DNA from: Candidatus Kuenenbacteria bacterium
GTDB lineage: Bacteria; Patescibacteriota; Patescibacteriia; UBA11705; JABHMO01
NCBI GenBank assembly: GCA_013202715.1
Contig: JABMRF010000007.1
Location: 8,566 to 72,565 of the forward strand
Reading direction: 5' to 3'
DNA: 64,000 nt
Below, piece by piece: positions 56,989 to 62,215 of the stretch; position 1 is the first letter of the stretch; every line of letters begins with the position of its first letter. The notes below the pieces were generated by a model that was not told where the DNA came from, made no database searches, and saw nothing but the letters and a program-made list of their open reading frames with translations. Position numbers and translations under genes: made by a program.

Positions 56989-57103
56989 ATACCTTAATTT
57001 TACAGTTAAATAAGGCAAAAGTCAAAGGTAATTGACAAATCAAAAAAAGTATGTTATCTTATAGGGTGATGTTTATTGAAAAGACTGAACAAAGGGGGAT
57101 TCA

Positions 57104-57955
57104 ATGACCAAAGTTCATGAAGAATGGATTACAGAGATGATGGAGCGTCATGCTTGGGTAAATGATCTGGCCAGAGAATTTTGGGACAACAGTTTTCGCC
57201 ATGAACAAGTGCTTGAGTTGAATAGTGCTATCAGTGCTGGAAGAGAAGAAAGGGTGAAGGAACTCCATGCACGATTGATTAGCTCTATTCATTGTAATGT
57301 TTGTGGGACGAAGATTGCACGCGGTTGTATGGGTGCTGAGCAGTTTGGCAAGCGACGTAAATGCGATGACTGCCTTGAGGCTGAGCGCGAGTCTGATGGA
57401 AAAAAGTATTGCCGGCATTGTGGTCGGATTTATACGAAAAAAGAGCATTATGCTGGAATGAAGCAGCCACTTGATCCTAAGTCATTTGCCGCCATCAGTT
57501 GTTGTCCTGATTGTAAGACATTTGCGATTACCATTGCCAAGACCTGTGAAAGGCTAGCGAGGGAAAGTGTGCAGCCACTGATGGAAAGAAGAGATGATTT
57601 GAAGCGACCTGTATGCAGACCTGAGTTGTCTGTCGGAGATCAGGCTATTTTTGATCAGTATGGTGTAGACCATTCACTTTTCTTCAAGGGAACAAAGCCG
57701 CTTTTTATTCAAGGGATTGCCAAGGGTCATCGACCTCTGTTGCGTGCACTTGAACAAGGGTTTGTTCCTCGGTGTCGAATACGACACAAGGAATATGGAT
57801 ATGAAGGTGAGCTTCAATCTCTCACTCCTGTGATCAGAAAAGATGGGATGGGAACATTCATGACAAAACTGTTGAAGGCCAAAGTCTATTACGATGGAAG
57901 ACTGGCATTTACGGTTATTGGTGAATTCAAGATTGATGAATTTGAAGTAATGTAA
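57104..57955 (+). CDS. orphan multi-CxxC (Zn-binding) protein
   Basis: CNVC, CDDC, CRHC, CPDC; promoter TTGACA-17-TATCTT, SD-like AAGGGGG, terminator ~57959-57986. Confidence 0.7.
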   Translation: MTKVHEEWITEMMERHAWVNDLAREFWDNSFRHEQVLELNSAISAGREERVKELHARLISSIHCNVCGTKIARGCMGAEQFGKRRKCDDCLEAERESDGKKYCRHCGRIYTKKEHYAGMKQPLDPKSFAAISCCPDCKTFAITIAKTCERLARESVQPLMERRDDLKRPVCRPELSVGDQAIFDQYGVDHSLFFKGTKPLFIQGIAKGHRPLLRALEQGFVPRCRIRHKEYGYEGELQSLTPVIRKDGMGTFMTKLLKAKVYYDGRLAFTVIGEFKIDEFEVM

Positions 57956-58005
57956 CAGAAAAGCAGAACTAAACCAGTTCTGCTTTTAAAATATTTGAAT
58001 TTAGT

Positions 58006-58854
58006 TTATTTTTGTAATCTTTTTTGACAAAGTATATAAAATTTCTTCTCAATTTCAAATCCTAAATACTTTCTTTTGAGCTTTTTGGCAACAACCGCAG
58101 TTGTGCCGGATCCCATAAACGGATCGAAAACAAGCTCGCCTTCGTTTGAGCTGGCCAAAATTATTCGCTCAATAAGTTTTTCCGGTTTTTGAGTTGGATG
58201 TTCAGTGTTTTCTGGCATAGACCAAAAGGGGACAGTGAGATCAGTCCAGATATTGGATGGGTGAGTCATACGAAATTTTTCGCCGTTAATTTCCTGCCAG
58301 TCCTTTGGTTTTCCTTTTTCGTCAACATATGGAGCAATGACCGCCTTCTTTACTTTGACGTCATCCAGATTGAAAGTATAATTATCACCTTTGGTTGCAA
58401 ACCAAATATCCTCCATGTTATTTTTCCAGTTTCGTTTCGCTCCGCGTCCCTTGTCGCGTTTCCAGGTAATTCGATTTCTAACTGTAAAATGTTTTTTAAG
58501 AATCGATTCAATAATAGAAGACGCTTCCCAGTTTATGCAAATGTAAATTGAACCGTTTGACTTAAGAATTCGATGGCACTGCTTAATCCAATTTTCGCAC
58601 CAGCTAATGAATTCTTTTTCCTTGACTGAAACTGTCCCTTTACCAAAATCTTTTCGAATTGTATATGGCGGATCGGTGACAATTAAGTCAATGATATCGT
58701 TTGGTAGTTTATTTGTTTCTTCAAGTGAATCGCCAAAGAATATATTATTTTCTAAATTGTTAATTCTTAATCCTTCATTCTTAATTTCAAAAACGGGAAA
58801 ACTGCTCAGGTCTTCTTTTGTAACTGTAATAGTTTTGTTGCGTTTTGACTTCAT
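58006..58854 (-). CDS. amino-DNA methyltransferase, beta class, solitary
   Basis: DPPY precedes HPTQKP and DPFMGSGTT. Confidence 0.93.
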   Translation of the reverse strand: MKSKRNKTITVTKEDLSSFPVFEIKNEGLRINNLENNIFFGDSLEETNKLPNDIIDLIVTDPPYTIRKDFGKGTVSVKEKEFISWCENWIKQCHRILKSNGSIYICINWEASSIIESILKKHFTVRNRITWKRDKGRGAKRNWKNNMEDIWFATKGDNYTFNLDDVKVKKAVIAPYVDEKGKPKDWQEINGEKFRMTHPSNIWTDLTVPFWSMPENTEHPTQKPEKLIERIILASSNEGELVFDPFMGSGTTAVVAKKLKRKYLGFEIEKKFYILCQKRLQK

Positions 58855-58879
58855 TAATTTGATTATAGCAAATTTTCAC

Positions 58880-59214
58880 AAAAAAAATAGCACCGGCTAT
58901 TTTGTGCAATCCTTGTTTGTCATTTCTCTTGGTTTGACCCAGTGATTTCAGGCTTTTTATCACCTGTTATTTGGTGTCCAGTGACCAGTATGACGGGATT
59001 GCAACGAAGCTCGGTGCTCTGTTTGGTTTGCTGCGCGACGGGTCGTGGCGTCTTCTCGCAGACTAAGATCCCTAGTGGGTCTCTTCCGTGTTCGGACTAA
59101 TTGTCAGTAACTCTTGGCATCGCCCTCCTTTTTGAATTCGAAGCCAGGATGTAAGATTGTGCCCACTTTTCACATGGGCACAAGCATTGTAACGAATTAT
59201 TTTCTCAATGTCAA
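58880..59214 (-). ncRNA. putative small RNA / minigene unit A (MPRVTDN*, 59120-59097)
   Basis: TTGACA-17-TACAAT (59214-59186), 5' hairpin, AAGGAGG, terminator-like hairpin + T tract near 58880-58905. Confidence 0.5.
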
Positions 59215-59228
59215 TCGCTTTTGTGGAT

Positions 59229-59375
59229 AAAAAAAAGAGCGCTGAGGTGAATCAGCGCTCGAGGTGCGGTTTTTAGCCGCAAATCATAGTTTGCCTCCCT
59301 GTTTCTTGATGCTCTTGTCCTTATCAGGACCTAGATCAGTGACTGCATTATAGCATACACATGGGCCTTTGTCAA
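59229..59375 (-). ncRNA. putative small RNA / minigene unit B (MICG*, 59287-59273)
   Basis: TTGACA-17-TATAAT (59375-59347), GGGAGG-6 nt-ATG, terminator gagcgctga/tcagcgctc + T8. Confidence 0.55.
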
Positions 59376-59862
59376 GACCCTGAGCGACTAGCAGGAGTCG
59401 AAGGGTCAAGGCCTTTTTTAAAAAAAAATGGAGCATCACGATGATCGTGATGCTCCGGTGAAGATACCCAGGGTCTAGCCTATCCTGGGATGGCTCGACT
59501 GGCACGTCCTTCAAAACGTACTATGCCGCTACAGTCATTCTACGAGGTCTGTAGTTCTCGTCACGCTCTCGCCGGATTGCGCTCTTTTTCTCGTTTGTGT
59601 TGACGGATGGGATGTTCCGTCTTGGTCAGGTCCAGGTCATTATCCATGTCCTCCTGTGGAAGGGGTATGGCCGTTCCCGAAGCTTCAAACTTCGGGCAGC
59701 CTGTCCGTTTGCGTTAGGGCCAGTGCATACCGTCCTCTCGTCGTTCGGGCCTTTGGCGATGTCTGTCTGAAGCTTCTAACTTCTTGACATGTAACCGCAT
59801 TATAGCATACTTTTGTAATCTTGTCAAGACCCTGAGCGACTAGCAGGAGTCGAAGTGTCAAG
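59345..59862. repeat. duplicated promoter + REP-like block (59345-59410 and 59797-59862)
   Basis: gcattatagcatac...ttgtcaagaccctgagcgactagcaggagtcgaag(g/t)gtcaag in both copies. Confidence 0.9.
59420..59827 (-). ncRNA. putative structured RNA / minigene unit C
   Basis: TTGACA-17-TATAAT (59827-59799), several hairpins, AGGAGG, terminator 59430-59456 + T tract. Confidence 0.55.
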
Positions 59863-60045
59863 TGCTTTGTGTTTTTTTCTCTAAAATTAGATAAATGTTT
59901 ACTTTTAGATTCCAATCGAAACGTAGATTGTTTTGCAAGTCATAGACAAAATTGTCAAATTTGGTATAATTCATTCAAGAAAACAAAAAAGCATGAAAAC
60001 AAGAACTCAGCCTGAAGGATTCATTGTTTTTTTGTTTTTTACTAT

Positions 60046-60690
60046 ATGTTATATATCGTAGGTACACCAATTGGAAATATGCAGGATATGACAATGCGCG
60101 CTATTGAAACCCTAAAAGGCGTTGATGTTATCCTCTGCGAGGATACAAGACAAACCAGCAAACTGGTTGTTCGCTTTGAATTGAACAAAAAACTGGTCAG
60201 CTTGCATCAGCATACATCGGACGACAAGACGAAAATGCTTTTGGAAGAATATGAAAATATTGCTTATGTAAGTGATGCCGGAACTCCAGGGATTTCAGAC
60301 CCGGGCGGGAAATTAGTTCAGCTTGCAATTGAAGCGGGGCACGACGTTGTTCCGATTCCAGGACCGAGTGCAGTTGCAACCGCACTCAGTGTTTCAGCAT
60401 TTCCCGCTGATAAGTTTTTCTTTTTGGGTTTTATGCCCAAGAAGGGGCAACAAAGAACATTTGATTTAATTAAAGATTCACAATATACAGTTTGTTTTTA
60501 CGAATCACCGCACCGCATTATCAAAACATTAGAAAAATTAAAAACTGAACTGGAATCTGATCGACAGATGATGGTGGCGCGTGAATTAACAAAAAAATTT
60601 GAAACAATATATCGCGGAACAGCAGAGCAAATCCTCGAGCAAGTAAAAGAAAAGGGTGAGTTCACAATTGTTATTTCGCCAAAAAAATAA
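60046..60690 (+). CDS. rsmI: 16S rRNA C1402 2'-O-methyltransferase
   Basis: LYIVGTPIGN, CEDTR, SDAGTPGISDPG, YESPHR, ARELTK. Confidence 0.97.
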   Translation: MLYIVGTPIGNMQDMTMRAIETLKGVDVILCEDTRQTSKLVVRFELNKKLVSLHQHTSDDKTKMLLEEYENIAYVSDAGTPGISDPGGKLVQLAIEAGHDVVPIPGPSAVATALSVSAFPADKFFFLGFMPKKGQQRTFDLIKDSQYTVCFYESPHRIIKTLEKLKTELESDRQMMVARELTKKFETIYRGTAEQILEQVKEKGEFTIVISPKK

Positions 60691-60691
60691 T

Positions 60692-62215
60692 ATGGAAAAA
60701 AATAAATTTTACATTACAACCCCCATTTACTATGTAAATGACCGCCCGCACATAGGTCACGCTTACACAACGGTGATCGCAGATGTGCTGGCAAGATACA
60801 ATCGGTTCAAAATTGGAAGCGACAAGGTTTGGTTTCTGACCGGTACAGATGAGCACGGCGCCAAAGTTGCGCAGTCAGCTGAGGCTGAAGGAAAAGAACC
60901 ACAAGCATTTGTTGATGAAATTTCAGAGGAATACAAGAATAAATGGGAAAAGTTAAATATTTCTTATGATGATTTTATCCGAACTACTGAGGCACGGCAC
61001 GAAACAGTTGTAAAAGAAATTTTAACCAAATTGAAATCAGCAAAAACCCCGCAAGGAAAAGACGTTATTTTCAAAGATACCTATGAAGGACTCTATTGCG
61101 TCGGTTGTGAAGCTTACAAAAAAGAAGAAGACTTGGAGGACGGAAAATGTCCAGATCATGGCAAAGCTCCTGAAACCTTGTCCGAAGAAAATTGGTATTT
61201 TCGATTGTCTGATTATACGGACGAATTGAAACAAAAAATTGAATCAGATGAAATAAAAATCTTACCGGCTGACAAAAAGAAAGAAGTTTTGAGTTTTATC
61301 GCCCAAGGGTTAGAAGATATTGCTATTAGTCGCGCAAATGTTGATTGGGGAATTCCAGTTCCGTTTGACAAAGAGCAAACTATTTATGTCTGGGTTGATG
61401 CGCTCATTAATTATATTTCTGCAATTGGTTATCCAGATGACGAGAAGTTCAAAAAGTTCTGGCCGGCGAATGTCCATTTGCTAGCAAAAGACATATTAAA
61501 GTTCCATTGTATCATCTGGCCGGCAATGCTTCTGGCCGCAGAGATTGAACAGCCAAAAGAGTTGTTTGTCCATGGGTATTTTACTTTGAGTGGCAAGAAA
61601 ATGAGTAAGACCCTCGGAAATGTAATTGACCCGGACGAATTGGTTGAAGAATACGGAGCTGATGCTGCTCGTTATCTTATAATTTCGCAATTTGTTTTTG
61701 GCCAAGATGGTAATGTGAAAGTTGACGAGTTTCCAATCAAATACAACGCAGATCTGGCAAATGGAATTGGCAATCTTGCCAGTCGTGTGCTCAGTATGGC
61801 TGAAAAGTATTGTGAAGGAAAAGTTCCGGATAAAAAGTTTGATGCGGATTTGGATTTGAAAAAGATCTGGCAAAAGATTGACAAAGGCTTTTCGGATTAT
61901 AAAATTTTTGAAAATCTGAAAGAAATCTGGGAAGTAATTCGCTGGTCTGACACATACATTGACGAAACTAAACCATGGGTTCTTGGAAAAGAAAGTAAAC
62001 AAGAGGAACTTGATCAAATCATCTATAATCTTCTGGAAATACTTCGTCATTTGGGCTGGCTTATCAAACCAATCCTGCCTGAAACTTCAGACGAAATTTT
62101 GAAGCGACTTGGTGAATCAGAGTCAGATTGTTCTTACTCCGATGCAATAGCTGTTGGCAAAATTAAATCTGGAACAAAAGTTGAGAAGGGCGAAGCACTT
62201 TTTGCACGGAAATAA
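60692..62215 (+). CDS. metG: methionine--tRNA ligase (short form)
   Basis: TTPIYYVN, HIGH, GTDEHG, YVWVDAL, KMSKT. Confidence 0.97.
   Translation: MEKNKFYITTPIYYVNDRPHIGHAYTTVIADVLARYNRFKIGSDKVWFLTGTDEHGAKVAQSAEAEGKEPQAFVDEISEEYKNKWEKLNISYDDFIRTTEARHETVVKEILTKLKSAKTPQGKDVIFKDTYEGLYCVGCEAYKKEEDLEDGKCPDHGKAPETLSEENWYFRLSDYTDELKQKIESDEIKILPADKKKEVLSFIAQGLEDIAISRANVDWGIPVPFDKEQTIYVWVDALINYISAIGYPDDEKFKKFWPANVHLLAKDILKFHCIIWPAMLLAAEIEQPKELFVHGYFTLSGKKMSKTLGNVIDPDELVEEYGADAARYLIISQFVFGQDGNVKVDEFPIKYNADLANGIGNLASRVLSMAEKYCEGKVPDKKFDADLDLKKIWQKIDKGFSDYKIFENLKEIWEVIRWSDTYIDETKPWVLGKESKQEELDQIIYNLLEILRHLGWLIKPILPETSDEILKRLGESESDCSYSDAIAVGKIKSGTKVEKGEALFARK

Follow-up and report, generated by a model that had tools for sequence, protein, structure and literature searches.

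Minigene-bearing RNA units in a recurrent slot beside an rsmI-type gene of Candidatus Kuenenbacteria, with a proposed role in holding ribosomes

One kilobase of a Candidatus Kuenenbacteria genome, flagged at first pass as an array of promoter-SD-minigene-terminator units, contains a cluster of minigene-bearing RNA units that, judged from its sequence and from its counterparts in relatives, is real and selected, and for which a mechanism is plausible. The units share a clear anatomy, they occupy a conserved slot, SD-led minigenes occur in them in excess of chance, and both a four-codon frame (MHWP-stop) and a family of frames ending in [FY][PT][ST]GFx-stop (the SGF family) are conserved at the peptide level. 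We tentatively read the kilobase as three free-standing minigene units whose RNAs would recruit ribosomes via their SDs and hold them at slow stops, buffering free ribosomes, and we give this reading slightly less than an even chance.

The window is the whole stretch of DNA analysed, 64,000 nt of contig JABMRF010000007.1 (assembly GCA_013202715.1). The source genome (G000) has 1.30 Mb and a GC content of 39%, and is rated 99.99% complete. The flagged kilobase lies between a divergent gene of the TP_methylase family, which we take to be an rsmI-type rRNA methyltransferase gene (rsmI below), and a DNA methylase gene. Its GC content of 0.43-0.52, against 0.39 for the genome, agrees with the higher GC noted at first pass, and in Pfam and NCBIfam searches none of the five frames of 28-76 aa in the region scored over the cut-off. 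The features are as follows, from upstream to downstream of the units.

60046..60690, plus strand: upstream flank, divergent gene of the TP_methylase family (family match)
59830..59855, minus strand: REP-like hairpin at the -35 box of promoter 1, TTGACA on both sides (repeat search)
59799..59827, minus strand: promoter 1, 12/12, TG-extended (promoter scan)
59422..59793, minus strand: unit 1, predicted transcript of ~370 nt, inferred from promoter and terminator; fold z -4.3
59714..59739, minus strand: SD (GAGAGG) and MHWP-stop minigene (59728-59714) (reading frames, synteny)
59697..59706, minus strand: word GACAGGCT(G), common to cluster RNAs of G007, G011 and G015
59561..59655, minus strand: second SD (59655-59650), followed by MTWT-stop (59640-59626) or by the 28-aa alternative (59647-59561)
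59422..59456, minus strand: terminator-like hairpin 1 and T-run (terminator scan)
59378..59403, minus strand: second copy of the REP-like hairpin, loop same as in the first (repeat search)
59347..59375, minus strand: promoter 2, 12/12, TG-extended (promoter scan)
59228..59340, minus strand: unit 2, predicted transcript of ~110 nt (promoter and terminator scans; fold z -3.9)
59298-59294, minus strand: unit 2 SD, predicted paired
59287-59273, minus strand: MICG-stop, stop in hairpin loop
59260-59237, minus strand: unit 2 terminator (terminator scan)
59222..59230, minus strand: 9-mer just upstream of promoter 3, kept in G002, G003 and G004
59186..59214, minus strand: promoter 3, 11/12 (promoter scan)
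58882..59180, minus strand: unit 3, predicted structured RNA of ~300 nt (fold z -3.7, homologues)
59097..59129, minus strand: unit 3 SD (59129-59124) and MPRVTDN-stop (59120-59097); peptide not kept
59031..59061, minus strand: middle hairpin with internal loop (read from sequences); one G-C to A-U pair change in G004
58890..59017, minus strand: 3' rod of 128 nt; its closing stem has nine pairs and one bulge (59017-59008 with 58898-58890); then a T-run
58006..58854, minus strand: downstream flank, N6/N4 DNA methylase gene (family match)

The promoter scan recovered the three minus-strand sigma70-type promoters with 17-nt spacers that had been reported from the sequence (12/12, 12/12 and 11/12), and the MPRVTDN, MICG and MTWT frames were found where they had been placed, together with the 28-aa alternative. 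That inventory had overlooked a fourth frame, MHWP-stop, which is the first SD-start of unit 1. Each unit had also been credited with an intrinsic terminator; a hairpin followed by a T-run is present in units 1 and 2, whereas in unit 3 the T-run follows a long-range stem and the scanner found no short terminator. No gene lies on the transcript of any unit, each of which ends at a terminator-like site. The units of the kilobase are three distinct RNAs and not copies of one, and all three predicted RNAs folded better than every shuffle (z scores as listed). DNA contigs from four runs of one study, one run possibly being the source, cover the stretch and break only at a duplicated 25-mer.

Promoters 1 and 2 had been described as duplicates with a REP-like insert. 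The duplication was confirmed (78 nt), and the insert proved to be a dispersed element that occurs at five to six promoters. The two copies here have one and the same loop, which suggests local copying. Promoter 1 is identical at 36 of 42 nt to a promoter of G004 at the same place, and the REP-like insert is missing from this orthologous promoter. Separately, we observed that the hairpin family, of ~27 nt, sits between two TTGAC words at -35 boxes, with further copies in G000 at C17 15617-15683, C25 16391-16486, C29 1716-1763 and C43 11369-11424, and that the empty site of G004 looks as if REP-like insertion duplicates the -35 word. The DnaA-box-like 9-mer upstream of promoter 3 has 43 copies in the genome.

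Strong SDs had been called absent from core genes, and eight of the nine housekeeping-type genes checked in the window do lack one, the exception being tatD. As a rarity in the genome the strong SD did not hold up: an SD and start follow within 260 nt at 119 of 235 near-consensus promoters genome-wide, and 170 of 897 long ORFs carry an SD. Two classes could be told apart genome-wide, housekeeping genes mostly without an SD and accessory orphan genes with a near-consensus promoter and a strong SD. The assembly has no 16S rRNA from which to read the anti-SD sequence. Frames of at most 10 codons behind a near-consensus promoter number eight in the whole genome; three of the eight, a share above chance, are in the flagged kilobase, and most of the other five lie, by reading, inside longer genes or behind tRNAs.

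We then compared the slot among relatives. A BLAST search of the region against 60 relatives returned only promoter, repeat and terminator words and no body homology; homologues of the units were found by synteny, not by BLAST. The rsmI-type gene is present in all 16 family genomes, and units lie divergent from it in G000, G001, G003, G004, G007, G010, G011 and G015, the seven relatives among these having one to four promoter-terminator units with SD-minigenes upstream of rsmI. In G002, G008 and G012 units are instead located beside (upstream of) the methylase gene. No units were found upstream of rsmI in G013, G009, G014, G006 and G012, and G002 and G008 have a contig edge there; G013, G009, G014, G006 and G005 have a reduced cluster or none at all. 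When metagenomes were scanned with rsmI, a single close relative came up, and 50,697 phage records gave no match. In 13 cluster sequences (8940 nt, including a unit on contig C29 of G000), SD-minigenes of at most 20 aa numbered 27 on the sense strand, where a Markov null expected 3.7 (maximum 10 in 300 draws), and two on the antisense strand, a strand-specific excess of ~7-fold over chance. The proposal that these RNAs load ribosomes on minigenes is therefore supported at the level of the locus, by this excess and by the frames kept as peptides, while it fails for the three peptides originally named: MTWT and MICG have no exact homologue, and the frame of unit 3 varies among its five homologues.

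Unit 1 contains the frame that is kept. MHWP-stop also occurs in G003, where it starts with GTG, uses CCG for Pro and ends in a different stop codon, all three differences being silent. It was found in 2 of 26 order genomes, and the control gave none at those genomes. A wider search for Trp-Pro-stop fell below its control (20 matches against ~44, in 151 genomes), which leaves two genomes as the basis for the conservation of MHWP; for the same shortfall we rejected a class-wide Trp-Pro-stop family. For MTWT and the 28-aa frame no homologue was found by BLAST in the 60 relatives. In G002 and G004 another pair of frames, related to each other and 13 codons long, stands behind promoter 1, which indicates that the cargo of this promoter turns over; these frames (L099 in G002; L026 1343-1560 in G004) read M-x-A-x-R-x-x-x-A-V-G-x-x-stop and overlap a predicted helix. 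GGA words are frequent in unit 1, as a GGA-type sponge for CsrA/RsmA, one of the options raised at first pass, would have them. They are predicted to lie in stems and not in loops, the 99.99%-complete genome has no CsrA match and Rfam has no match to the units, and we regard this option as barely credible.

In unit 2 the stop of MICG lies in a hairpin loop. A unit of G015 encoding MISPL-stop likewise has its stop in a hairpin loop before the terminator, a likeness of build only.

Unit 3 has homologues in G002, G003, G004 and G012 (five genomes with G000). All five keep the GGAGG, the word ACAA at a distance of 17-22 nt downstream, and the closing stem (GCACCG-N-GC with GC-CGGTGC, then a T-run). 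The rod enclosed by this stem measures 76-128 nt across homologues and differs in sequence, and it folds in each. The frame after the SD is MPRVTDN, MA or MEKFG, or has no standard start (G004, G012), and in the flagged unit only 3 nt separate the GGAGG from the ATG. Since SD and stem are kept while the frame changes, we consider unit 3 a conserved RNA whose peptide is not conserved. Covariation, suggested as a check at first pass, was not significant in the closing stem: eight of its nine pairs are invariant, one is changed on both sides, and 100 of 500 shuffles scored as high. A sequence-only model of the 5' half detected no new homologue in 26 order genomes beyond the five training sequences (best other E 0.015), and the closing-stem pattern occurred in 3 of 401 class genomes. 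The homologue of G012 (L073) was seen between long inverted arms of short tandem words, in a cassette-like arrangement.

Rfam gave nothing near the gathering score over window positions 57000-62000 and four homologous loci, in line with the first impression of an unrecognised family. No tRNA-like ends with a tag frame, as in tmRNA, and no P4 consensus, as in RNase P RNA, were detected within the window; the genome has one tmRNA at another place, and RNase P-like text was read on contig C52, while relaxed ARAGORN tmRNA calls were noise. Unit 3 resembles 6S RNA, SRP RNA and CsrB/RsmZ in having a long rod closed by a terminal stem, and differs from them in its want of an Rfam match, its rod of 76-128 nt and the SD-bearing 5' domain ahead of it. 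We rejected 6S RNA as its identity (no RF00013 match and no whole-molecule rod with a central bubble), although the 6S model detected 6S in only 5 of 14 control genomes, so that a divergent 6S is still conceivable. Also considered and set aside were the closing stem as a tracrRNA terminator (a likeness of six base pairs, and no Cas1), microcin C and biarylitide precursors (the unit 3 peptide is not conserved and no enzyme is a neighbour), retron msr-msd and prepilin-leader mimicry.

These comparisons bear on two alternatives. The slot could be a hotspot of unrelated small RNAs, with unit 3 binding a protein and MTWT, MICG and MPRVTDN as by-products of a stock promoter-SD module. That half of the strong promoters here carry an SD and start would fit, as would the stem of unit 3 being kept without its peptide and the different cargo of promoter 1 in G000 and G003 versus G002 and G004; we nevertheless judge this improbable, given 27 SD-minigenes against 3.7 expected with almost none antisense, silent changes only in MHWP, and SGF frames that share the slot. 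The units could also be decayed remnants of longer accessory genes, which here have the same promoter-SD layout, and a decayed-looking stretch adjoins the cluster in G004. This is very improbable in our estimation: homologues have no longer frame in common and match no family, the structure of unit 3 is kept while its sequence turns over, and SD, start and stop are intact in 65 copies of the SGF family.

This family connects the flagged kilobase to other genomes. Units in the slot of relatives encode peptides of 5-12 residues ending in [FY][PT][ST]GFx-stop: the G003 transcript that starts with MHWP also has MRYTSGFP-stop and MYTSGFD-stop, related SGF frames occur in G001, G011 and G015, and looser variants in G007, G008 and G010. 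None of the four frames of the flagged kilobase has the SGF motif or a RAPP-like motif; what ties them to the family is the shared slot, a common transcript in G003 and the likeness of the promoters. The two SGF copies of G000 itself (19 and 19-54 aa) are in a promoter-terminator unit on contig C29, and the start region of this RNA matches that of promoter 2 at 23 of 25 nt. At this locus (L061 1298-1828) the two paralogous frames end in P[YF]PSGF[DE]-stop and lie between rlmN-like and uvrB-like genes, named by reading translations; the first frame may begin at a TTG behind an SD and would then have 54 aa, including LAGP and a hydrophobic start. Not one of the 897 long ORFs of G000 ends in the SGF motif.

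To survey the family we searched the class with the pattern SD-start-[FY][PT][ST][GW]Fx-stop, which hit 16 of 401 genomes, where the control gave 3 hits; of the 19 sites, 16 are in frame. A GTDB-wide scan, which overlaps the class search, yielded 53 loci, and 43 of 55 matches were in frame against ~4 in 10 expected (p 9e-9, kin not being independent). After discarding 12 out-of-frame loci and 5 that were in frame inside long ORFs, 36 loci were kept, with 65 SGF frames of 5-12 codons; 19 loci have extra copies, and up to four frames stand in tandem between a promoter and a terminator-like site. As labelled in the records, carriers belong to Paceibacterota, Saccharibacteria, Falkow-, Kerfeld-, Magasanik- and Moranbacteria, many uncultured Clostridia and one Pseudodesulfovibrio; the four Clostridia carriers that we checked have genomes of 1.3-2.0 Mb. 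SGF frames were not above control in G002, G004, G005, G012 and G013, and a viral-contig scan for the pattern gave 12 loci, 10 of them out of frame, so the family was not found there. Over the minigenes of 20 of the 36 loci Rfam identified only flanking tRNAs and T-box-like leaders. Frames of 4-10 codons escape annotation, yet they are kept by selection across phyla on transcripts with no other gene. As an observation on layout, twelve loci of uncultured Clostridia (L105, L106, L115, L118, L131, L135, L139, L140, L144, L146, L152 and L153) each have 2-4 SGF/TGF minigenes in tandem on one transcript, often with an M-x-RGP frame of 15-21 codons at its head.

In the SGF frames Ser is drawn from both codon boxes, Gly, Phe, Tyr and Thr vary silently, and the position of the motif is fixed relative to the stop. 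We scored the stops of the 29 copies that had not been selected for their stop: 23 are TAG, 6 TAA and none TGA, TAG making up 25% of stops in G000. RF1 reads TAG and TAA, so the restriction to these two points to a preference for RF1-read stops. Of the 52 other SD-frames in these loci (companion frames), 14 start with RGP-, RAGP-, RGSP- or RSPP-like words, against 0 of 13 antisense frames, with a pattern chosen post hoc.

Conservation at the peptide level with free codon choice would also be expected if the transcripts were plain polycistronic mRNAs and the released micropeptides acted in trans, as ligand, inhibitor or signal, in the cell or in a host. Tandem paralogous copies would raise the dose, and the C29 RNA combines a 54-aa frame of hydrophobic start with a 19-aa paralogue, both motif-ending. 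For released peptides the stop codon should not matter, yet TGA is absent from 29 stops and TAG accounts for 23; frames of 2-5 residues and the changing frame of unit 3 fit badly, and neither an exporter nor a modifying enzyme is a constant neighbour. We consider this explanation unlikely, if still worth weighing.

We return to the reading in which ribosomes are held. What we infer is that the units are transcribed and translated, that ribosomes arrest at the stop or at RGP-like motifs, and that this buffers free ribosomes. Each unit would be transcribed from its own promoter into a free-standing RNA, ribosomes would load at the strong SDs, and they would linger at slowly terminating stops of the 4-13-codon frames or at RGP-like words, the result being a store or sink of ribosomes and not control of a downstream gene. 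Unit 3 would be the limiting case, an SD and a 3' stem with no fixed frame, which may bind the small subunit (or a protein) without needing a peptide. The three 4-codon frames end in P, T and G, which with Cys are the least-used last residues of the 897 long ORFs; the corresponding test across frames gave 9 of 27 (p 0.015 against composition, chosen post hoc and with kin not independent). According to 10.1101/751305, Pro, Thr and Gly before the stop slow release, more so without RF3, and RF3 had no match over the cut-off in the genome. RGP/RAGP-like words are arrest motifs according to PMC10987492 and PMC10951233, the latter also giving R/HxPP as a selected stalling motif, which MHWP-stop resembles only loosely. 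Among the points against the reading are the predicted pairing of SDs (those of units 2 and 3, and the second one of unit 1), the short SD-ATG spacing of unit 3 and its lack of a standard start in two of five homologues, the want of the family motif in the flagged frames, the failure of Trp-Pro-stop to be enriched class-wide, the relatives with a reduced cluster or none and those with SGF frames not above control, and an ordinary hibernation factor in the genome.

More broadly, and with less confidence than for the kilobase itself, we propose that bacteria with reduced genomes in unrelated phyla, namely CPR bacteria and small-genome gut Clostridia, may have dedicated tandem SD-minigene RNAs whose nascent peptides park ribosomes at RF1-read stops. 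Such RNAs, with no gene behind the frames, would store ribosomes or sense termination; in this lineage the flagged array would be their cluster, with unit 3 past the need for a peptide. We lean against this wider proposal while thinking it a real possibility. Should the frames stall ribosomes, they would make up a minimal set of motifs for termination arrest, easy to synthesise, and bacteria that depend on a host might use them to slow or store their ribosomes, a question that bears on CPR life cycles. Without stalling there is still an uncatalogued structured RNA in unit 3 and an uncatalogued peptide family in the SGF frames.

Very short translated frames that act on the translation apparatus are known from the lambda bar minigenes and from the macrolide-resistance pentapeptides encoded in 23S rRNA, and TnaC and MsrDL are stop-codon arrest peptides that serve as leaders of a downstream gene. 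Compared by description, the bar minigenes and 23S pentapeptides are single frames in other RNAs, whereas the frames here have dedicated promoter-terminator units. Leader and arrest peptides (PepNL, TnaC, SecM, Apd) have a regulated gene downstream, unlike the units here with their terminator-like end and gene-free transcript; the methylase gene behind the cluster has its own -10 box, and its neighbours change between relatives. Peptide conservation anchored at the stop, as in such leaders, is shown by MHWP-stop (two genomes) and the SGF family and not by MPRVTDN, MTWT and MICG. PepNL (PMC11890864) resembles the SGF family in C-terminal residues fixed relative to the stop and in a stop-codon preference, but it stalls at UGA while the SGF family avoids TGA. 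With the RAPP-type peptides SecM, ApcA, ApdA, ApdP and YwcI (PMC10987492, PMC10951233, PMC12992588), the SGF companions share RGP-, RAGP-, RGSP- or RSPP-like words and the C29 frame shares LAGP. In these known peptides the RAPP-type motif lies near the C-terminus behind a longer chain, with upstream context needed, whereas the companions have their word in the first 12 residues and no localisation signal, spacer or downstream sec/yidC gene.

Closest in layout is CreT of CreTA (PMC8501985), which is likewise a free-standing RNA with a strong SD, a start, a frame of 4-6 codons and a stem-loop. The units could accordingly act as RNA toxins of the CreT kind, or as addiction modules, by depleting a tRNA or release factor 1, and TAG/TAA-only stops would point to RF1. 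CreT has two consecutive rare codons fixed at the codon level; no such pair occurs here, only CCC is rare and G003 uses CCG in its place, and synonymous codons vary freely. CreT is linked to type I CRISPR-Cas and the antitoxin CreA, whereas no Cas1 match was found here and the neighbours are the rsmI-type and DNA methylase genes; the units also have several frames per RNA and a chromosomal slot beside housekeeping genes. Anti-SD-rich small RNAs in the slot of G005 and G007 would suit an addiction module, against which no antisense partner was seen, and we rate the toxin explanation as quite improbable. By the tests run, the units belong to none of the CreT, arrest-leader, RAPP, CsrB/RsmZ and 6S groups. 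They are uncatalogued in Rfam, Pfam and the literature searched, in which we found no description of the units or of the SGF family; the uORF tables of PMC10987492 and PMC12992588 may list some of the frames.

Several further observations were made around these loci. The anti-SD-rich RNAs just mentioned (L040 in G005, L031 in G007, both upstream of rsmI) are promoter-terminator RNAs of 60-150 nt that have no SD and are rich in anti-SD-like CU words; it is possible that they are partners of the SD-bearing RNAs. In the third unit upstream of rsmI in L031, an SD-started frame passes a terminator-like hairpin without a stop, possibly making a non-stop mRNA. The DNA methylase gene has a TG-TATAAT box (58854-58870, minus strand) ~11 nt ahead of its ATG, here and in relatives, so that the gene is probably near-leaderless, and no restriction partner was seen adjoining it in relatives. 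At 57104-57955 (plus strand) there is an orphan frame of 283 aa with Cys pairs and higher GC; it runs opposite to the genes around it, and the slot lacks it in G001, G003 and G004. Elsewhere in G000, a promoter-led RNA on contig C56 (from 260, plus strand) carries three SD-minigenes of 14, 3 and 3-4 codons.
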